Source: a virus (taxonomy: Duplodnaviria > Heunggongvirae > Uroviricota > Caudoviricetes). From it: a stretch of 64,000 bases of DNA. The notes below the pieces were generated by a model, which worked only from the letters and a program-made list of their open reading frames with translations, ran no database searches and was not told the DNA's origin. The stretch spans positions 44,631 to 108,630 of IMG/VR virus record IMGVR_UViG_2724679237_000005; one strand, written 5' to 3'. Positions 8,706 through 34,599 of the stretch are shown piece by piece. The position numbers and the translations under genes are program-made. Within the stretch, counting starts at the first letter, position 1. The number at the start of each line of letters is the position of its first letter.

Positions 8706-9875
8706 TCACGTCTTAATAGTTTCTGCTACGTCGGCTAATATCGCTTCTAGTCGTTCTCCCTCTTCAGGTCTGAAGTAAAGAATGTTGGGGTTAAACCCGT
8801 AAAAGACAGTAACGTCAAGGTCTGGAAGATACTCCTTCCTGCCGACCAAATCGGATGGCTTGTTTTTGTTGTTAAACAATGCCGTTGCCCGGCTGCCACA
8901 CGTCAGCACATAGGTCGGACGCACCAGATTGATCTCTTCACGTATAAAGTCGGTGAACTGGCCGATCTCGTCTTTGGTGTAGTCTTTTTCTTTGTCTTTA
9001 ACCTTCTTGCAAACGCCTGTGACATAGAGATCGCCCATGCGTAAATCTCCAGCCGTCAATAGCTTGGCCTTAAAGTCGTCGTATCCGTTCTCCATAAAGT
9101 AACCGGTTCGAGCATCATTGCCGTTCGCATTGTCCAGAATGATCATGATTTTCGGCTTAATACCAATGCTGGGGCGGATTAGTTCATCACCTAAGCCCAT
9201 TTCAGCCGCCATCCGCGTCATGAGTACGTTAATTTCAGCCGAACGTTTGGGGTTCATCTCAAACGAACGTGAGGCTTTAACTGCGTCTATGACAAGATTT
9301 CCCATCAATTCAGCCTGGTCGCGTAGGCGCTCTGGAGCAGTTGCTGGCAGACTACCTGGCTCGATGGATGCAAACGCCCCTACTTTTTGCAGCGATTCGC
9401 GCACTCGACTATTACAGGCACGTTTCTCGACAGCTTCTTCGAATTGCGCCAGTGACTCGAATTTGCCGCCAACTTTTTCTCGCGCTCTCATGATGGCTTG
9501 GCAGCCATTCTCAGAACACCCCTTCACAGCAGAGAATGGCGCATACAGCACCTGGCTGCCATCTTCAAGCGTGCGGATCTCGATTCGGTTAGATGACACG
9601 TTAACGTCTGGTGGCAATACGCGAATTCCATAGGTCAGCGCATCTTTAACCAGCCCTTGGTGTTTATCTTCGCCAAGAATAGTGAGAGCAGCAGCGAAAA
9701 ACTCTGCGGGATAATGAGTTTTCAACCACATAGATTGATAACTGATTAAGGAGTAAGCAACAGAGTGTGATTTGTTGAAGGCATACGCGCCGGATTTCTC
9801 AAACATATTCCAGATTTCTTCGGCTCGTTCGTGCGTCAGGCCATTGCTCTCTTCAACTACACTGGTAATTTTCAT
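8706..9875 (-). CDS. dnaE: DNA polymerase III alpha (DnaE), C-terminal fragment
   Basis: Contains the DnaE fingers signature AYAFNKSHSVAYSLISYQSMWLKTHYPAEFFAA; own ATG overlapping stop of HNH ORF. Confidence 0.8.
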   Translation of the reverse strand: MKITSVVEESNGLTHERAEEIWNMFEKSGAYAFNKSHSVAYSLISYQSMWLKTHYPAEFFAAALTILGEDKHQGLVKDALTYGIRVLPPDVNVSSNRIEIRTLEDGSQVLYAPFSAVKGCSENGCQAIMRAREKVGGKFESLAQFEEAVEKRACNSRVRESLQKVGAFASIEPGSLPATAPERLRDQAELMGNLVIDAVKASRSFEMNPKRSAEINVLMTRMAAEMGLGDELIRPSIGIKPKIMIILDNANGNDARTGYFMENGYDDFKAKLLTAGDLRMGDLYVTGVCKKVKDKEKDYTKDEIGQFTDFIREEINLVRPTYVLTCGSRATALFNNKNKPSDLVGRKEYLPDLDVTVFYGFNPNILYFRPEEGERLEAILADVAETIKT

Positions 9876-10606
9876 TCAGTCACCTCATCAATCTTCACGA
9901 ACTCATACCCATTGGAGGCCAGCCAGTCCCGCTGGCGCTCCCAGCTCCATACCTTTTCACGCATTTCGCTATGCAGGCGAATGTGGGCGTCTTCTGGAAG
10001 TGCCACCAGATTCCCAGGGGCGTTATCTACCGTATCGCGGTTAATATGGTGGACATGTTCATCGTCACGTAGCTCCCGACCGAGACGTTCTTTCGCTATC
10101 AACCGATGAACGTATTCGTATTGCGAAACGCCATTGTTACCAACCAGCTGCATCATGTAGCCGTTGGTTTTTACGATGATGCCATCTTTGTAGTTGTTCG
10201 CTTCTTCTCCGATCTTTCCGCGTTTGGCAGCCGCCAGCTTTTCCTTCGTCTCCGCGCGGATTGTTCTGCCGGTTAGCTTTTTCGAAACGGTGGCCACTCG
10301 CTCATCGATATCAGCACGCAGACCGGCATTCCACGAGGTTTTCCCATACATAGGGTTGCCAGTGCCAGTCCGGGCTTCGGAGAGTCGCTTCATACGTTCG
10401 TCATTATTTTTGTTTTTGCCACGATTCCAGGCTGGGGTAGCGGAGATCCGCGCGTTTCCGCGCCTGATCCCCCATTTGGCTAATAAGCGGTCAATATTTG
10501 CCTTGCTGCAACCAGCTTCGGCGGCAATGTCTTCTTTTCTCATCAGGTCAACCATGTAACGCTGACGTAACCATTCTTCTGTGATTTTGTACTTCGTACT
10601 CGGCAT
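9872..10606 (-). CDS. HNH homing endonuclease inserted within dnaE
   Basis: C-terminal HNH motif EHVHHINRDTVDNAPGNLVALPEDAHIRLH; N-terminal NUMOD-like stretches (GKTSWNAGL, RAETKEKLAAAKRG); sits between the two dnaE fragments. Confidence 0.8.
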   Translation of the reverse strand: MPSTKYKITEEWLRQRYMVDLMRKEDIAAEAGCSKANIDRLLAKWGIRRGNARISATPAWNRGKNKNNDERMKRLSEARTGTGNPMYGKTSWNAGLRADIDERVATVSKKLTGRTIRAETKEKLAAAKRGKIGEEANNYKDGIIVKTNGYMMQLVGNNGVSQYEYVHRLIAKERLGRELRDDEHVHHINRDTVDNAPGNLVALPEDAHIRLHSEMREKVWSWERQRDWLASNGYEFVKIDEVTE

Positions 10607-10654
10607 TTCTAAGACTCACTAAACAAATTGTTTTCTTATCTTATAAATTAATTC

Positions 10655-13018
10655 TCAAATATCGAAGCTCGTTATGTCGGCATTTATTGCCATTGCTTCG
10701 GCATAAGTGCGACGCTCACCATCAGCACAAAGTAGGCGTGCTGCTTTATGGATTTTTCTCGTAGAACCGTCATCCAGTGACACTGTCACCCAGCCTTCCT
10801 CCGCTCGCTTAATGAAGTCGCCGCCAATGGATTTCATTTTCTCCATATCTTTTTTCCCGATCGCTTTCCTGACCGAGTCTGCTTCCGCCATTGAGAACCC
10901 CGCCAAGATTCGCGTAGCAGCCATGATCTGTTCCTGATAAATCAGAACACCGTTTGTGTCGCGAGAGATGTCGTCCAGCATAGGGTGTAAGGAATGTGGA
11001 GCCATGAAGCCTTTGGCCACGGAGACATAGTCGTCCAACATGCCGGATTGAATCGGGCCTGGTCGGAAGAGTGCGGTCGTGGCGACAACGGTCTTGAAGC
11101 TCATTGGCTCGATGCCACCGCCCAGATCTTTAAGCAACTTACGCATGGGGCCGGACTCCAGCTGGAATACGCCCTGCGTGTACCCTGCAGCGAACCCATC
11201 CAGAACCTTGCGATCGTCCAGTGGGATAGCGTCGAGATTGATATCTTCACCTGTGTTCTCTTTTATGTAGCGTTTTGCACTATCGAGCAAATCGAGAGTT
11301 GCCAGGCCAAGCACGTCCAGCTTAATTAGGCCCATAGCCTCGCAGTAACGCTTGTCAAATGCGATACAACGCGCGTCACCACGTCGTTCAACCGGTGTAC
11401 GTTCTGTCAGAGGAACACCTGCTACGATCATCCCTGCCGCATGTCTACCAAAGCCACGCATAAGGCTTTGTAACTTGCAGGCTGCATTGAATGCATCAGG
11501 ATATTTTGTTGCGTATTTGTCGAGACTTGCCAGTTGTTCGCGCAGTTCTTCCAATGGAAGGCTATCATCCTCAGCGTTCTTCAGTTCTTTTGATACCGCC
11601 ATATCTGCGGACTCCACACCATAAATACGAGCGGTGTCACGTAGTGCAGAGGCTGCGCCCAGGTAGGTGAAGTTCGGAATGCCTGCAACGTAATCTTCGC
11701 CGTAGCGTTCATTCAGATACTCGATCACCTCATGGCGACGTGCCTGGCTGAAGTCCAAATCCGCATCTGGCAAGTCGAGACGCTCAGGGTTGATGAAACG
11801 CTCAAACAGAAGACCGTGACGGATTGGGTCGACGTTGGTTATGCCTATGCACCACGCCACCAGAGAACCGGCAGAGGAACCACGACCAGGCCCAACGGGA
11901 ATGCCAGTTTCACGACTATGATTCATCAGATCGCGCACCATCAGGAAGTAACCACAGAATCCCAGGCGAGTCAGCGTGTCCATTTCGTACTTTAGCCGCT
12001 CAACATAAACCCTGTTCTCAGAAGCAGGTGGTGTGTATCCAAACTCTTTTGTGGTAAGACGTTTACGCAGCCCTGCAACAGCCAGTTTCATCAGCGTTGC
12101 AGGTTCGTCGTCTGCCATCTTGGGCAGTGCTGGTGGCAATTCATGCCAGCGCCATGTGCAGGAATCGATAATGGTATCCTGCGTTGTTGAGGCCATTGCA
12201 GCTGTTACAGGCACATCCATGCGAACGGAGAAGGCTTTAAGCGCCTCAAGGAGATGGCGGCGACCATTGACGGCGTTATCTCGCTGGTGGGGGATACGCA
12301 GACGATGCGGCTGGTCGATTTTGATGTTGTTCGTAACCATGTGCGCAATGTCTTTAATGTCTGCATCGTCGATCGATTCGTAATAAGCGGGATAGAACGC
12401 CACTGGCTCTATTTTCAATGCGCTGGCGACTTTCATCGCCCGGACGTTAATCTGGTCGTAGAATGGGGTAGGGTGCGGATAAACCACACTATAGAAGTTG
12501 TCTTTTCCACCCGCTGTAATCAGTGTGCTTATGATTTTTGCAAAATCGTTGCGTTGGAACACGCTACCGATGTCGGAAGTAAGCAGGATGATGTTGCCTT
12601 TGGCATATGTAGAAACCAACTGTTCGAGCGAGAGACGCGGTACAAAGTAGAACTGTTCTCGTGTGTTGGCCGCCGTCATTAGTTCGCAGATGTCGCGATA
12701 TCCTTGCTCATTTTTAATTAGAGCGGTAAACGAGTAGTTACGTCCCCGCTCTAATGATTCCATACATCTCATAGATTCTTTAGCAAGTTTAGCCCGGTGC
12801 TCGTATGTGGGATCATCAACAATGTTTAGTTTCACACCACAAATAACCGCCATGTCGTCACCAGCGGCACGTTGTAGTGGAATAACGCTCGCAATATTCA
12901 TGCTATCTGCTGAAATTACAGCGGTGTAGCCAGCTTCTCTGGCAATCTTCACCGCGTTTTCTGCTTTTAGAGCCGACTCCCCAAGTGAGAAGTCAGTTCG
13001 AACCATCAGTGCCTTCAT
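10655..13018 (-). CDS. dnaE: DNA polymerase III alpha (DnaE), N-terminal fragment (PHP and polymerase core)
   Basis: Palm motif GYFLMVRDLMNHSRETGIPVGPGRGSSAGSLVAWCIGITNVDP and LFERFINPERLDLPDADLDF; ends just before the fingers FNKSHS motif, which is found in the downstream fragment. Confidence 0.85.
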   Translation of the reverse strand: MKALMVRTDFSLGESALKAENAVKIAREAGYTAVISADSMNIASVIPLQRAAGDDMAVICGVKLNIVDDPTYEHRAKLAKESMRCMESLERGRNYSFTALIKNEQGYRDICELMTAANTREQFYFVPRLSLEQLVSTYAKGNIILLTSDIGSVFQRNDFAKIISTLITAGGKDNFYSVVYPHPTPFYDQINVRAMKVASALKIEPVAFYPAYYESIDDADIKDIAHMVTNNIKIDQPHRLRIPHQRDNAVNGRRHLLEALKAFSVRMDVPVTAAMASTTQDTIIDSCTWRWHELPPALPKMADDEPATLMKLAVAGLRKRLTTKEFGYTPPASENRVYVERLKYEMDTLTRLGFCGYFLMVRDLMNHSRETGIPVGPGRGSSAGSLVAWCIGITNVDPIRHGLLFERFINPERLDLPDADLDFSQARRHEVIEYLNERYGEDYVAGIPNFTYLGAASALRDTARIYGVESADMAVSKELKNAEDDSLPLEELREQLASLDKYATKYPDAFNAACKLQSLMRGFGRHAAGMIVAGVPLTERTPVERRGDARCIAFDKRYCEAMGLIKLDVLGLATLDLLDSAKRYIKENTGEDINLDAIPLDDRKVLDGFAAGYTQGVFQLESGPMRKLLKDLGGGIEPMSFKTVVATTALFRPGPIQSGMLDDYVSVAKGFMAPHSLHPMLDDISRDTNGVLIYQEQIMAATRILAGFSMAEADSVRKAIGKKDMEKMKSIGGDFIKRAEEGWVTVSLDDGSTRKIHKAARLLCADGERRTYAEAMAINADITSFDI

Positions 13019-26422: not shown

Positions 26423-27568
26423 ATGAAATACATAAAACCTTCATCGTTGCTGGCATTAACTTTGCTTTTTAGCTCTGGATTCGTTAACGCAGACAATAAA
26501 CAAACGCTGATAGAAGCCGCTAACGCAGGTGATACCGCAGCACAAAGTGAGTTAGGGACAAATTATTTGGATGGTGTCAATGGTTTTGATAAGGATGTAG
26601 TTGAGGCCAAGAAGTGGATTGATCTCGCTGCAGAAAAGGGAGATAAAGTAGCATATTATGCACTTGGAGTTATGTACACATTTGGCGAGGGTGTAGATAA
26701 AGACCTAAATAAAGCTGTTGAGTACTACAAACTTGCGGGGGATGCTCGTGAAGGTAGAGCCTACAACAATCTTGGTGCTATTTATCAAAAGGGGATGCTT
26801 GGTAAAGTAGATCATGCACTCGCCATTAAATACTTCAAACTAGCCTCTGATGCCGGGTATGTTAAAGCAACTTCAGTTCTTGGGGCGTATTACCAATATG
26901 GTAAAGGCGTTCAAAAGAATTATAAAAAGGCTTTTACTTATTACAAAAAGGCGGCAGACCAAGGCAGTTCAGAAGCTATGATAGGATTAGGAATACTATA
27001 CGATGATGGGTTAGGCGTTAAACGCAATGATGCAGAAGCAGTTAAGTGGTATAAAAAGGCAGCGGAACTTGGAAACGCCGACGCCATAACCAATCTTGGC
27101 ATTATGTATGAGAATGGGGAAGGAGTAAAAAAGGACTATAAAAAAGCAGCCGACCTTTATCAGACTGCTTGCAATAAAGGAGAAAAAAGAGGCTGTGAAT
27201 ACATTACTGAACTGAAAGAAAGCGGAAAATATCGAGTATCTGATTCCAAAGCCAAATCAAAATCAGATGTACAGCGACTTATTGCTAAATCCATTGATAA
27301 AGGCGTTAACGCAACTTTTACCTGGCAAGGTGATGACGCCACATTCACCGCTAATGGCGGCAAAATTGACTGCACTTTCCTAAAGGATTTTTCAGAGAAA
27401 GGAGGCAATCTGGCTACCTCGTTTGTTTGCACCGATAACGTTCAAATCATCCTGAAGCAATTCAGAGATACCAAGAATGCCTACCTCGCGGTAATGACTG
27501 ACAACTTCAACACAGAAGTTAAATCATTTTCGGTCAATGTTTACGTGACTAATACTGGTTCAAACTAA
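26423..27568 (+). CDS. secreted Sel1-repeat (TPR-like) protein with unknown C-terminal domain
   Basis: Signal peptide then at least six Sel1-like repeats (e.g. AYYALGVMYTFGEGVDKDLNKAVEYYKLA, AMIGLGILYDDGLGVKRNDAEAVKWYKKAA); plus-strand, lower GC. Confidence 0.7.
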   Translation: MKYIKPSSLLALTLLFSSGFVNADNKQTLIEAANAGDTAAQSELGTNYLDGVNGFDKDVVEAKKWIDLAAEKGDKVAYYALGVMYTFGEGVDKDLNKAVEYYKLAGDAREGRAYNNLGAIYQKGMLGKVDHALAIKYFKLASDAGYVKATSVLGAYYQYGKGVQKNYKKAFTYYKKAADQGSSEAMIGLGILYDDGLGVKRNDAEAVKWYKKAAELGNADAITNLGIMYENGEGVKKDYKKAADLYQTACNKGEKRGCEYITELKESGKYRVSDSKAKSKSDVQRLIAKSIDKGVNATFTWQGDDATFTANGGKIDCTFLKDFSEKGGNLATSFVCTDNVQIILKQFRDTKNAYLAVMTDNFNTEVKSFSVNVYVTNTGSN

Positions 27569-30208: not shown

Positions 30209-30958
30209 TTAATTAGATAGGGGATCAATAAACCGCCGTGCTTCTTCCAGTTCTTCTGGAAAGTGGGCGGAAATAAGGCGCTCTGGAACGATTTCCATTA
30301 GCCAGATAGCGGAGAAAATTGCGCGTATGCGCTTGCTGCGGGGGATGGTGCGTAAACGCTCCAGAATCCACTCAAAATAGCTTTCCTGAATCGGGTTGAA
30401 CTGCATGTCTCCCATATGCTTAAAGCTAACCAGAGAGTCATCCAGACGGGTTGTTGCGCGTCTGGCTAATTTCTCTTCGAATATCTCAATCAACTCTGGC
30501 TGCCACAAATGCTGTGGGCGCGGCAGCTTGTCCCACAGACGTCGTGCAGCTGCGGAAAGAACGGTGGAAATAAAGTAGTCGTATGAGCAGCAATAGCGGT
30601 CAGCAAACTGGCGTGCTTTCCATAGCGACGTTTTATTGGCAGTCGACAACTCCTGATAAGGCAGGCGTTTTAACCCGGTGGTGAACGGAGCTGTTTCAAA
30701 GTGTTCGCGACCGTGCGTCAGCATGATATTTGAGTACTGACGTTTGTATGCCTCCGTAAAAAGACAGGTGGCCATGAGAGGATGCATGTCGCGGTAATCA
30801 AACCACTTCGTCTCGAAGAGTTCAGCCTCGTCTTTACAGCGCGACAAACCAATGTTTTCAGCGACCCACTTGTCCATAACAGCGGTATTCCACTCTGTCA
30901 TGAAGTCGTACTGGTCGTTGTCGATGGTATCGAAAAAGATTTGGCTCATGTGGCTCAC
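30209..30958 (-). CDS. hypothetical protein (249 aa), possibly replication-associated
   Basis: ORF immediately upstream of dnaB in the same operon; no recognised motif. Confidence 0.45.
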   Translation of the reverse strand: MSHMSQIFFDTIDNDQYDFMTEWNTAVMDKWVAENIGLSRCKDEAELFETKWFDYRDMHPLMATCLFTEAYKRQYSNIMLTHGREHFETAPFTTGLKRLPYQELSTANKTSLWKARQFADRYCCSYDYFISTVLSAAARRLWDKLPRPQHLWQPELIEIFEEKLARRATTRLDDSLVSFKHMGDMQFNPIQESYFEWILERLRTIPRSKRIRAIFSAIWLMEIVPERLISAHFPEELEEARRFIDPLSN

Positions 30959-31065
30959 CTGGTAGGTAGTTACTTACTTATCACAATGAGCGGATGATAG
31001 CGACTGGTGGCAGTTTTTGGAAGTGGAAACGGAAGGGAGTTGTTCTGGTGGTGTCTTTTAAAAGA

Positions 31066-31120
31066 CCTGCTTCCGTATATATTTAATAAGTTACTTATTA
31101 TTTATATATACAGAAGCAGG
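31066..31120. repeat. 55-bp AT-rich near-perfect palindrome with GC clamps
   Basis: CCTGCTTCCGTATATATTTAATAAGT / ACTTATTATTTATATATACAGAAGCAGG; lies in divergent intergenic region between the 249-aa gene and the GIY-YIG gene. Confidence 0.6.
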
Positions 31121-31230
31121 CATAACTTGTCGTCTTAGACGCCCAGAAGCTCTACACTTTGAGCCTGTTAAATTGATTAAAACCTATGTGTAAAATAGAA
31201 CGCATTAGTCAGTAGCAAAGAGATGCAATA

Positions 31231-31998
31231 ATGGACGATTTATCGGTATACGCGAGATCATTGGATAAGGCTAAATACTATGTTTACTGTCTCTATGATA
31301 CAGAAGACAAGATGAAAAGACCGTTTTACATAGGAAAAGGCAAATCGACTCGTTGTCTCGATCACATCAAGTATCCCGATGACTCTCCCAAATCCATGCG
31401 GATCAAAGAACTTTTGGCTAATAAAAAATTAGGCATAGATATTCTTCGTCATGGTATGGATGAAACCACAGCCAAACTTGTTGAGGCGACATGCATCGAC
31501 CTTATGGGGGTCGGAGAGCTTACGAATAAGGTTCGAGGAAGTGGTTCCATGATGGGCAGAATATCACTGGACGCCTACCATCACTTAGTGCTGCAAGAGG
31601 AAACTGAAATTGCTCCTGAGCACGCCGGTCTTGCCTTCCTGCTAAACAGCACCTACAAGTCAGGAATGTCCGCTCTGGCATTATATGAAGCTACGCGTGG
31701 CGTATGGGCAAAGGTTCCAAGAGACGAGAATCTCAAATATGCCTACGCTACATATGGTGGGCTGATAATGGAAGTTTATCAGATTGAATGCTGGGTCAAA
31801 GCCGGTTCTCAGCAGTACTTTACAAGGGATATAGCTCTTGGCCCCGACACAAAACGTTATGAATTTGTTGGCAGAATAGCCGATGAGCATATTAGAAAAC
31901 TGTATGTAGGCAAATTAATCAAGAAGCCACCAAGCTACGGTAGCCCTTTTGTGAAGGTTGGGATGGTTAGGACTGAACATAGTGTTAGCGCGGCATAA
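31231..31998 (+). CDS. GIY-YIG nuclease domain protein (free-standing homing-endonuclease-like)
   Basis: YVYCLYD...PFYIGKGKS...R...E motif arrangement of GIY-YIG domain at N-terminus; plus-strand, own terminator. Confidence 0.6.
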   Translation: MDDLSVYARSLDKAKYYVYCLYDTEDKMKRPFYIGKGKSTRCLDHIKYPDDSPKSMRIKELLANKKLGIDILRHGMDETTAKLVEATCIDLMGVGELTNKVRGSGSMMGRISLDAYHHLVLQEETEIAPEHAGLAFLLNSTYKSGMSALALYEATRGVWAKVPRDENLKYAYATYGGLIMEVYQIECWVKAGSQQYFTRDIALGPDTKRYEFVGRIADEHIRKLYVGKLIKKPPSYGSPFVKVGMVRTEHSVSAA

Positions 31999-32014
31999 AG
32001 CTGACACTGTAGTT

Positions 32015-32052
32015 ATGCATTGGCGCAATGTACGCGCCAATGCATGATTTTT
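32015..32052 (+). terminator. rho-independent terminator after GIY-YIG gene
   Basis: ATGCATTGGCGC-AATGTAC-GCGCCAATGCAT perfect 12-bp stem followed by GATTTTT. Confidence 0.55.
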
Positions 32053-32410
32053 AACCTTTCTTCATCAACTCTCGTTTGATTTCATCGGTACGCATCGTGA
32101 CATCGGCAGCGGTGATCGCCTCATTCAATTTCACGATGTCCTCGATTTCCTGCGGTGACTTCTCTGCCAGATGGAAAATGGCTGCTCGAATCACGTCAGA
32201 ACGAGTGAACTTCTCGAAGCGAGGGATGAACTTCATCATCTCCAGCAGTTCGAAGTATTCGTCCTCCAGTGACATTGTGCGGCTTTTAATTTTCTCTTTG
32301 CCACGAGTCGGGCGTCCCTGTGGTCTGACTGGTTGGCGCAAAGGAGTTGTGTTCTTAGCCGGTGCATCAGGCTCTTTGCGCTTTGCTAGGTCACCCATTT
32401 TCATGGACAT
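32051..32410 (-). CDS. small partition protein, ParG/ribbon-helix-helix-like centromere binder (putative)
   Basis: 119-aa basic N-terminus, translationally coupled directly downstream of parA as in type Ib partition systems. Confidence 0.45.
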   Translation of the reverse strand: MSMKMGDLAKRKEPDAPAKNTTPLRQPVRPQGRPTRGKEKIKSRTMSLEDEYFELLEMMKFIPRFEKFTRSDVIRAAIFHLAEKSPQEIEDIVKLNEAITAADVTMRTDEIKRELMKKG

Positions 32411-33078
32411 TATTCTTCTTCCTCCAGACTCAACAGATAATCTACAAATTCTTCAAACTCGGCTTCCGCCTTTTTGTCGCGCTCGCTACCGGTCATTTCA
32501 AAGATAGAACGACCAGACTCTTCCGCATCATCATAGACGTTGCGGTTATATAGATTGACTGGCGCAGACTCGATTCCAAACGTCTCAACAATCTCTTTAG
32601 CCGCCAGAATGCGAGACACTTGTGATGGCAAAGCCGGGCACTGGTTCATGACCGCGCGGACCTTCACTTTATCGTTTACATTGCGAACATTGTCGATAAT
32701 AGGATCGATGTCACGTAAAGATTTCAAATCACGACGCTTAGGACGCAGCGGGATAATGATAACGTCAGCCATCAGCATCGCTTGTCGCTGAATTTCGGAG
32801 TCAAAGCCACCAGCATCTACCACTACATACTCAGCTCTACCCTGAAGCGATTTTAGGTGCTTAATGATGTCATCCTGAACGTATGCAAAAGGAATCAGCT
32901 CAAGGTCTTCGTTCTGTCGACGGTCTTCACACCAGCTCGTTGTCGTGCGCTGAATATCTATATCGGTGATATAAACCTTCTTCTTCTTTTTGACTTTCAG
33001 GCAAACGGCAATTTGCTGGGCAACGGTGGATTTGCCAGGCCCGCCCTTTGTGCCGCCAACCACAAAGATCTTGGTCAT
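32410..33078 (-). CDS. parA: ParA partition ATPase (small, type Ib)
   Basis: Deviant Walker A GGTKGGPGKST; 222 aa. Confidence 0.8.
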   Translation of the reverse strand: MTKIFVVGGTKGGPGKSTVAQQIAVCLKVKKKKKVYITDIDIQRTTTSWCEDRRQNEDLELIPFAYVQDDIIKHLKSLQGRAEYVVVDAGGFDSEIQRQAMLMADVIIIPLRPKRRDLKSLRDIDPIIDNVRNVNDKVKVRAVMNQCPALPSQVSRILAAKEIVETFGIESAPVNLYNRNVYDDAEESGRSIFEMTGSERDKKAEAEFEEFVDYLLSLEEEE

Positions 33079-33231
33079 TGGAGAGTTCCCTTTGCGTATA
33101 TAATTATCGTCTGAAACAACTTGTTTTCTTATATGTGATATAGCCTAAATGCCTACGGCTGTGGTGTAAAGGTTAAATGGTAGGTGCTGCCTTAGAATTT
33201 TTAGGCGAGAATCAATGGCTGTTAACAAAAA

Positions 33232-33249
33232 AGGCGACCAAAGTCGCCT
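33232..33249 (-). terminator. rho-independent terminator for 33255..34007 gene
   Basis: AGGCGAC-CAAA-GTCGCCT hairpin flanked by A6 and T5 runs (bidirectional geometry). Confidence 0.5.
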
Positions 33250-33254
33250 GATTT

Positions 33255-34007
33255 TTAATCTTTTAGGTATAAACCTACTGGAGTTCTTGTTTTGCGGGAG
33301 ATGATAAGTACGATAAATTTCTGAACGTTAACTTGCACTTTGTTTGGGAGCCAAGAGCTTAACTCTGCATCAAGCAACAATCCTCTGTTCCACGGCAAAA
33401 ATCCGGTTTCTTTCCCCATCCCGTACTCGCCTAACACATCCTCGAACGTTTCTGTTTTGGCATTGTATATACGCACATCGCCGGTTCGCATGAGAGGCCC
33501 TGCCCAGATCTTAGCACCAGGAATGGTTTGTGTATCGTCGCAGACTAAATGCTCATACCAATGAAGAAGAAAGAGATAGGTACGGTGACACAATCCTCGC
33601 TGACGACGCTCTCTGACAGTTTCGACACCAGCTACCTGGTAACATTCGATCTCATTACCGTCTTCAACAAAACTATATTCACGCAGAGCTATCCTACCAG
33701 CGATCGTATTTTTGTTTTCGTCCAGAAGCCCGGACTGGAGCACCTCTTTGATAATCTCTTCTTCAGGGGCATCTTCATCCGCTCGATCTAAGATGAATTC
33801 GCTCAGGTCGCCTTGGTCGCGCGCACCTACACGTTCCATAGAGACATACAGGCAAATGTCATCTTCTGGTTCAATGATTTCAATTTCTGAGATTTTATAG
33901 AGGGAGGCTTCATTGATAAGAAAGCCAAAACGAACAACACGAGTCTCCCCTTTATGAGGAAACTCGCTTAGATCTTTTGAATATGCGCTATCTAGTGTAG
34001 GAGCCAT
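33255..34007 (-). CDS. hypothetical protein (250 aa)
   Basis: ORF followed by terminator; no recognised motif. Confidence 0.5.
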   Translation of the reverse strand: MAPTLDSAYSKDLSEFPHKGETRVVRFGFLINEASLYKISEIEIIEPEDDICLYVSMERVGARDQGDLSEFILDRADEDAPEEEIIKEVLQSGLLDENKNTIAGRIALREYSFVEDGNEIECYQVAGVETVRERRQRGLCHRTYLFLLHWYEHLVCDDTQTIPGAKIWAGPLMRTGDVRIYNAKTETFEDVLGEYGMGKETGFLPWNRGLLLDAELSSWLPNKVQVNVQKFIVLIISRKTRTPVGLYLKD

Positions 34008-34375
34008 TTTGTAGCAGAATCATCAGCCTTAACCGTGCTGACAATGCTACCATGATTGCGTAAGAAGCGGCGAATAGAATGTTCAATAACCTCCGAAAAA
34101 GCCTCGATAAAACGAGACAGCTCAGGGTACTGTTTAGCTGGCTTGACTACAAAACGAACACGACCATTCAGGTAAATTGCTTCAGCTAATGGCTTCACGC
34201 TTGCACCAGCGCGCTCAACATCGTCTTTGAAGGTAACGATGAAGCGTGAGTCTTCCGGTTCAATAGCGTCATTATTGAGCTTACGTACTTCAAGCTTGTG
34301 CTGATTCAGCACATGAGTCTCGATAATACTCGTGCAATCGCGAATAGTTTGTATAGAACGTTTCTCGTTCAGCAT
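33992..34375 (-). CDS. hypothetical protein (127 aa)
   Basis: ORF; overlaps next gene start by 16 nt. Confidence 0.45.
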   Translation of the reverse strand: MLNEKRSIQTIRDCTSIIETHVLNQHKLEVRKLNNDAIEPEDSRFIVTFKDDVERAGASVKPLAEAIYLNGRVRFVVKPAKQYPELSRFIEAFSEVIEHSIRRFLRNHGSIVSTVKADDSATKWLLH

Positions 34376-34599
34376 GTGTCCACCTTAGCCGTTAACACAA
34401 GTGTCATTGCGGCACCCCTCTCGGGGTTGAAGGCTACGAGGATGCGTAGCCTGTATGTGCCCACTTACGTGGATGCCTAATAAATCTACATCAAATTACT
34501 AAATGATTCAACATGAGCTTGAGTGAACAGGCGTGTATATGAGTGAAGATGCCATCTTTAGGATAAAAGGTAAACTGAGACCACTCATCAATCATCGAC

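Follow-up and report, generated by a model that had tools for sequence, protein, structure and literature searches.

A probable modification-dependent anti-phage nuclease, related to PD-T4-3/CMoRE, as exchangeable cargo of an SSU5-like phage-plasmid

The window examined here, meaning the whole stretch of 64,000 nucleotides that was analysed, shows 99.1% identity to Escherichia phage CMS-2020a (CP053388) and 98.3% to PhiR41_1. With Salmonella phage SSU5 it is collinear at ~85% identity, and it was therefore classified as an SSU5-like E. coli phage-plasmid. A 255-aa open reading frame (ORF) with an ATG start was found on the plus strand using the ORF listing, flanked on both sides by blocks of minus-strand genes. 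This placement had been given in a preliminary description of the locus, and was confirmed by the ORF map and PHROGs. The features of the locus are as follows.

30209-30958, minus strand: phrog_2500 gene, left neighbour of the nuclease ORF, followed by genes for a DnaB-like helicase and a primase
31066..31120, no strand assigned: AT-rich near-perfect palindrome of 55 bp, CCTGCTTCCGTATATA...TATATACAGAAGCAGG, found as a self-reverse-complement BLAST match and part of the backbone
31121..31230, plus strand: cassette-specific 5' leader; likeness to related phage-plasmids stops at ~31120-31123
31231..31998, plus strand: nuclease ORF, 255 aa
32015-32045, plus strand: GC-rich hairpin
32051-32410, minus strand: gene for a small 119-aa parB/ParG-like protein (PHROG 5111), right neighbour of the nuclease ORF and downstream of parA
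32410-33078, minus strand: parA, in the right block

The parB-like protein weakly matches aCcr1, a family of ribbon-helix-helix regulators.

A consensus scan of positions 30900-32200 identified no consensus sigma-70 promoter upstream of the nuclease ORF. The best promoter candidates picked by hand are weak (TTAAAT-17-TAAAAT at 31168-31196, 8/12 matches), as is a putative ribosome-binding site, AAGAG, recognized by eye 9 nt 5' of the ATG. The hairpin begins 17 bases past the nuclease stop codon. It has a perfect 12-bp stem and a 7-nt loop, ATGCATTGGCGC / AATGTAC / GCGCCAATGCAT, and is followed directly by a TTTTT run that extends to 32052. RNAfold extended the stem to 16 pairs at -29.1 kcal/mol (z=-3.97), a value that was equalled by 0/200 shuffles. 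A terminator of its own with a perfect stem had been assigned to this gene before, and both the folding and the coordinates agree. A consensus terminator scan over 30900-32200 did not report the hairpin, perhaps because the stem extension takes up part of the T run. The hairpin is likely the intrinsic terminator of the nuclease gene, placed where the nuclease and parB-like genes converge.

Comparison with five relatives delimited a cassette of 0.93 kb that comprises leader, ORF and hairpin. Similarity ends exactly after the palindrome and picks up again at the parB-like stop codon (32051-32053), which forms the right edge of the slot. The palindrome is conserved and forms the exact left edge in every relative compared (alignment of six elements). 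Its role may be that of terminator, operator, partition site or recombination site. Rfam, searched around the gene, gave neither an intron nor another RNA family, and on the palindrome a chance miRNA-like match (E=0.59). The hairpin lies in the variable segment and so belongs to the cassette and not to the conserved backbone. By eye, 3/4 of the other aligned cassette variants have at the right junction a GC-rich hairpin that differs from this one. The GC content of the cassette is 43.7%, compared with 46.4% for the window.

The contents of the slot in the relatives are listed below.

Cyrano: DUF2971 protein, PADLOC candidate PDC-S31
SSU5: DUF2971 protein (PDC-S31) plus two other genes
CP054387: 567-aa KAP-family NTPase, PADLOC candidate PDC-S49
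NZ_CP104844: 357-aa protein (L006 2125-3198, plus strand), without a Pfam or PADLOC match
NZ_CP027369: empty, with the junction at L005 ~1890-2055

Between identical edges there are at least four unrelated cargoes and an empty form. The 357-aa protein, in a slot of ~1.24 kb, also occurs in several phage-plasmids of E. coli, E. fergusonii and Shigella sonnei, and because of the slot's other occupants it was considered a candidate defence gene. Neither target-site duplications nor att-like repeats were evident at the slot edges in the alignments. Since the edges are the palindrome end and a stop codon and show no repeats, homologous recombination in the flanks is the simplest reading, and cassettes would be exchanged by this route.

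The distribution of the cassette was examined using PLSDB and complete E. coli genomes. A 1.9-kb query spanning the slot matched 731 PLSDB records, and the cassette was present in 132. Among complete E. coli genomes 106/5426 have the cassette, on plasmids every time. The left flank was matched in 259 E. coli genomes, 247 of them with most of the flank length. Comparing 106 genomes with 259 or 247 yields a cassette frequency of ~41–43% among E. coli SSU5-like elements.

Several further features were noticed. A 94%-identical copy of the cassette lies on NZ_CP075717, a 162-kb IncF conjugative plasmid (L007 5001-6615), within a fragment of phage-plasmid backbone that retains pieces of both flanks and has an IS3-family element upstream. 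The centre of its hairpin is inverted, with GCGCGTACATTGCGC there compared with GCGCAATGTACGCGC in the window; the loop is flipped inside the palindromic stem. A second variable slot extends from parA to the lysis genes at 33100-34500. In the window and PhiR41_1 it holds two minus-strand ORFs at 33255-34007 (phrog_3307) and 33992-34375, for which no Pfam or PADLOC match was found. Cyrano, pMB5646_2 and NZ_CP104844 have a plus-strand DUF1778/GNAT (KacAT-type) toxin-antitoxin pair in this slot instead. Finally, a plus-strand gene at 26423-27568 in the window encodes a 381-aa Sel1-repeat protein (Pfam Sel1, E=1e-52) amid minus-strand replication genes, and looks like another opposite-strand cargo gene.

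The nuclease ORF was then considered as a protein. Pfam placed PF22945 (LEM-3-like GIY-YIG) on aa 32-104 with E=5.5e-7, over the curated cut-off. The motifs YVYCLYD and YIGKGKS lie at aa 17-23 and 33-39, respectively. The GIY-YIG arrangement proposed earlier for the N-terminal part is upheld by the Pfam match and both motifs. Six residues (Y17, Y19, Y33, R41, E85, N99) are invariant in 52 members of the window protein's clade and again in 110; R41 and E85 are the catalytic Arg and Glu of the GIY-YIG active site, and the preliminary description had pointed to conserved Arg and Glu positions. PHROGs assigned the protein to phrog_5356, a family without annotated function, and NCBIfam has no model that matches it.

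The preliminary description left the C-terminal ~160 aa unassigned. These residues now match the C-terminal domain in crystal structures of PD-T4-3, a defence protein renamed CMoRE (9U7U, 9U7Z, 9U75 and 9U8D; Liu et al., Nat Commun 2026, PMC12923530). The PADLOC PD-T4-3 model aligned aa 11-231 of the window protein with profile positions 11-238 of 256 (E=1.3e-23). In a PDB sequence search the sole matches were the CMoRE structures 9U7U/9U7Z and 9U75/9U8D (E=2e-15, aa 12-230), with the 9u7u chain covered at 17-243. A profile of the 52-member clade retrieved the CMoRE structures at E=2.2e-23, and the C-terminal 135 aa searched alone against the PDB retrieved CMoRE only (E=2.5e-4). A confident AF2 model of the window protein has two domains and a pLDDT of 86.9. 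The best four Foldseek matches to this model were PD-T4-3 structures, aligned over the full length with E=5e-12 to 1e-10. The searches by PDB sequence, clade profile and Foldseek converge on CMoRE. Because both sequence and structure match CMoRE, the C-terminal half was assigned to the CMoRE sensing domain, with the following limits.

aa ~100-112 of the window protein: low-confidence linker in the AF2 model
aa ~113-245 of the window protein: predicted modification-sensing domain at the C terminus, from homology to CMoRE

The window protein shares with PD-T4-3/CMoRE a single gene of ~250 aa, an N-terminal GIY-YIG domain joined to a C-terminal sensing domain (type I architecture), and homology in the sensing domain itself. 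It also shares the 'GIYxY-YIG' signature with a third tyrosine, Y17-V-Y19 and Y33-I-G in the window protein, all invariant (n=110). CMoRE residues Y17, Y19, Y31, R39, E93 and N105 correspond to Y17, Y19, Y33, R41, E85 and N99. Of the CMoRE interface residues, the intra-dimer R80 and V92 have conserved counterparts in R73 and V84 (clade: I or V), and L96 is replaced by an invariant Cys88. The window protein is very probably a member of the PD-T4-3/CMoRE family in the broad sense. Nucleases fused to PUA-like readers of modified bases (EVE/YTH/ASCH/SRA; VcaM4I, McrB N-domains) gave grey-zone scores at 3–10% identity, a likeness that we treat as a lead and not as a classification.

A catalytic GIY-YIG domain, which homing endonucleases of this kind share, is present in the window protein, and the gene had been called typical of a mobile homing endonuclease. 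A free-standing homing endonuclease of the Seg/I-TevI type would cut the cassette-less allele and be copied in by recombinational repair. The gene fits this in being self-contained and on the opposite strand amid conserved phage replication and partition genes, and empty (NZ_CP027369) and occupied alleles coexist. In addition, homologues from jumbo phages that are 28–30% identical were labelled homing nucleases by their depositors. Against it, no NUMOD, IENR1, HTH or zinc-finger module was found in the window protein using Pfam up to E=1, so the match of the C-terminal region to a known homing-endonuclease DNA-binding module that the preliminary description had allowed for did not appear, and the C-terminal half corresponds to the sensing domain of CMoRE, homologous to nothing else found. 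The Rfam search around the gene detected no intron. The classic presence/absence polymorphism also foreseen for this site gave way to at least four alternatives and an empty form among related phage-plasmids, making the slot multi-allelic with shared edges and not a two-state HE+/HE- locus.

The distribution of homologues bears on the same question. Homologues 50–78% identical to the window protein are lone genes in bacterial chromosomes, and the close ones stand alone in chromosomes of Providencia and Shewanella. With clusters made at 50% identity, the clade profile matched 3156 cluster representatives at E<=1e-3, of which 159 reached E<=1e-30. Among the 150 clade-profile matches listed, nearly all are 240-265 aa and have the same architecture. 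An identical partial protein is on record from Shigella sonnei. I-TevI and T4 SegA-G differ from the window protein in the DNA-binding module, the C-domain, the slot pattern and the chromosomal spread of homologues. The homing endonuclease was rejected, since Pfam showed no homing DNA-binding module in the protein, Rfam showed no intron, the slot is multi-allelic and chromosomal homologues are widespread; we regard this explanation as very unlikely.

The same window has, for contrast, a typical homing-type insertion in dnaE, the gene for DNA polymerase III alpha.

10655-13018, minus strand: DnaE-N, 787 aa, with PHP, Pol3 alpha and finger domains
9872-10606, minus strand: HNH_3+NUMOD3 endonuclease ORF, 244 aa, which splits dnaE
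8706-9875, minus strand: DnaE-C, 389 aa, with HHH_6

The split dnaE spans 8706-13018 on the minus strand, while the relative pMB5646_2 has one dnaE of 1172 aa. In the window 999 bp (9823-10821) stand for 204 bp of pMB5646_2. Rfam found no group I intron at the split gene. It has the look of a true insertion by a free-standing homing endonuclease, dividing a replication gene that is essential.

The jumbo phages are lytic phages of Serratia, Pectobacterium and Klebsiella (such as Moabite, 2050HW and N1M2; records H14-H27). Their full-length homologues are 25–30% identical over 71–88% of the query and were labelled GIY-YIG or homing nucleases by depositors. These proteins may instead be CMoRE-like enzymes directed against co-infecting phages with modified DNA.

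CMoRE is known from E. coli ECOR68, APEC O1 and O157:H7. It is a type IV restriction enzyme made of one protein, which binds DNA containing 5hmC or glucosyl-5hmC and degrades it (PMC12923530). Its direct defence is effective against T2, T4 and T6 and spares host DNA, and defence against T-even phages is lost on T4 with unmodified cytosine (PMC12923530). The N-terminal 'GIYxY-YIG' nuclease domain is accompanied by an acidic autoinhibitory loop of 15 residues, with four consecutive acidic residues in 'most' members, and mutations that neutralize the loop lead to cutting of normal DNA and to toxicity (PMC12923530). The functional form is a tetramer, a dimer of dimers, and the authors report no structural homologue (PMC12923530). 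By analogy, the window protein would adopt the same oligomeric state. A diverged family member from Capnocytophaga, PD-T4-3Capno, is 48% identical to PD-T4-3 and is likewise a modification-dependent nuclease, cutting T4 and Mu DNA (Rodriguez-Rodriguez et al., Cell Host Microbe 2025, PMC12366544). That modification dependence persists despite this divergence supports the view that function holds across the family.

The window protein departs from CMoRE in several respects. Overall identity is ~32% (N-domain 37%, C-domain 29%). CMoRE is chromosomal whereas the window protein is carried by a phage-plasmid. With the PADLOC model the window protein scored 82 bits (79-98 in its clade) compared with 399 bits for a true CMoRE sequence, and the window clade was therefore treated as a sister clade. 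The largest difference is in the alpha2-alpha3 loop, which has 12 residues in the window protein (IKYPDDSPKSMR) and 17 in CMoRE, making it 5 shorter. In place of the DDDE/DDDD of CMoRE the window protein has DD; its loop contains two acidic and three basic residues for a net charge of +1. Thus the acidic autoinhibitory loop with four consecutive acidic residues that most family members have is not found in the window protein. Loop length is 12 in 108/110 clade members, and a run of four acidic residues is present in just 16/110. The residue aligned to Y127 of CMoRE, which contacts 5hmC, is not conserved in the window clade, a mismatch that carries little weight because the contact is made through the main chain and the alignment is poor there.

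Given ~32% identity and a shortened, less acidic loop, the modification that the window protein recognizes is something we infer by analogy with CMoRE, and we put the chance that it is specific for 5hmC/5ghmC at about even. A CMoRE-like modification-dependent nuclease could also have another specificity or regulation, recognizing a different modification or avoiding self-cutting without an acidic lid. Candidate modifications would include Mu-type N6-carbamoylmethyl-adenine, arabinosyl-hmC and deazaguanines. The C-domain that is just 29% identical to CMoRE and the loop that is shortened and non-acidic in most of the clade point in this direction, as does the already broadened activity of PD-T4-3Capno on T4 and Mu DNA. 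We nevertheless consider a changed specificity or regulation unlikely.

The nuclease could also act outside defence, as an anti-defence effector, a plasmid-addiction toxin or a competition weapon, for example by degrading the DNA of the host or of a rival plasmid during the lytic cycle. Partition genes adjoin the nuclease gene, relatives have the DUF1778/GNAT toxin-antitoxin pair in the neighbouring variable slot, and lytic jumbo phages have the full-length homologues described above. On the other side, neither a partner nor an antitoxin gene accompanies the nuclease in the cassette, and in experiments the family restricts phage by direct defence and leaves host DNA intact (PMC12923530). PD-T4-3 is active in its native host, where its deletion left retention of a test plasmid unchanged (bioRxiv 10.1101/2024.12.20.629700). 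A toxin or addiction module was rejected for want of a partner gene in the cassette and because the family works by direct defence. We judge non-defence roles as a whole to be extremely improbable.

The possibility of a defence effector, which the preliminary description had raised as its alternative, is favoured because the protein is homologous over its full length to an experimentally proven defence system and candidate defence genes occupy the same slot. The observations beneath it are homology in both domains, conservation of catalytic residues, the structure of the cassette, slot polymorphism and distribution. From sequence comparison the window protein is likely to be a modification-dependent anti-phage restriction nuclease, carried as cassette cargo by an SSU5-like phage-plasmid.

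In the proposed mechanism, the cassette would be expressed independently during plasmid-prophage maintenance, on the other strand from the replication and partition operons. Incoming phage DNA would be bound by the C-terminal domain at a modified base, which in the characterized CMoRE is 5hmC or glucosyl-5hmC, as in T-even phages. The N-terminal GIYxY-YIG domain, with Y17, Y19, Y33, R41, E85 and N99, would then cleave the modified DNA, and the unmodified DNA of the host and phage-plasmid would be left intact. The expected outcome is direct, non-abortive protection against lytic phages with hypermodified DNA. Protecting the host cell would in turn protect the phage-plasmid.

The family has already been discovered, renamed and crystallized, with its mechanism established, and automated tools flag it in SSU5-group phage-plasmids. 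A survey preprint on phage-plasmids reports DefenseFinder calls of PD-T4-3 among SSU5-group elements from E. coli and Shigella, which may not be this exact gene, and the term PD-T4-3 occurs at least 44 times in its supplement. Known biology therefore accounts for most of what is seen in this PD-T4-3/CMoRE relative carried as swappable phage-plasmid cargo. The temperate phage-plasmid, present in ~2% of complete E. coli genomes, probably equips its host against hypermodified phages of the T-even type, which is relevant to the choice of phages for therapy against strains with SSU5-like elements.

A bolder proposal, which we hold only tentatively and think doubtful, is that a large sister clade of CMoRE lost the acidic 'safety-catch' loop and, with a sensing domain 29% identical, would read a different hypermodification or tell self in another way. 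It would also make the palindrome-bounded slot by parAB a site of defence-gene exchange, and the occupants that lack annotation, among them the 357-aa protein, would count as new defence genes. The sister clade with its short, non-acidic loop offers a natural test of the CMoRE autoinhibition model, and is a possible source of new modified-base specificities for epigenomic tools. With its exact edges, the cargo slot makes its uncharacterized occupants reasonable new defence-gene candidates.
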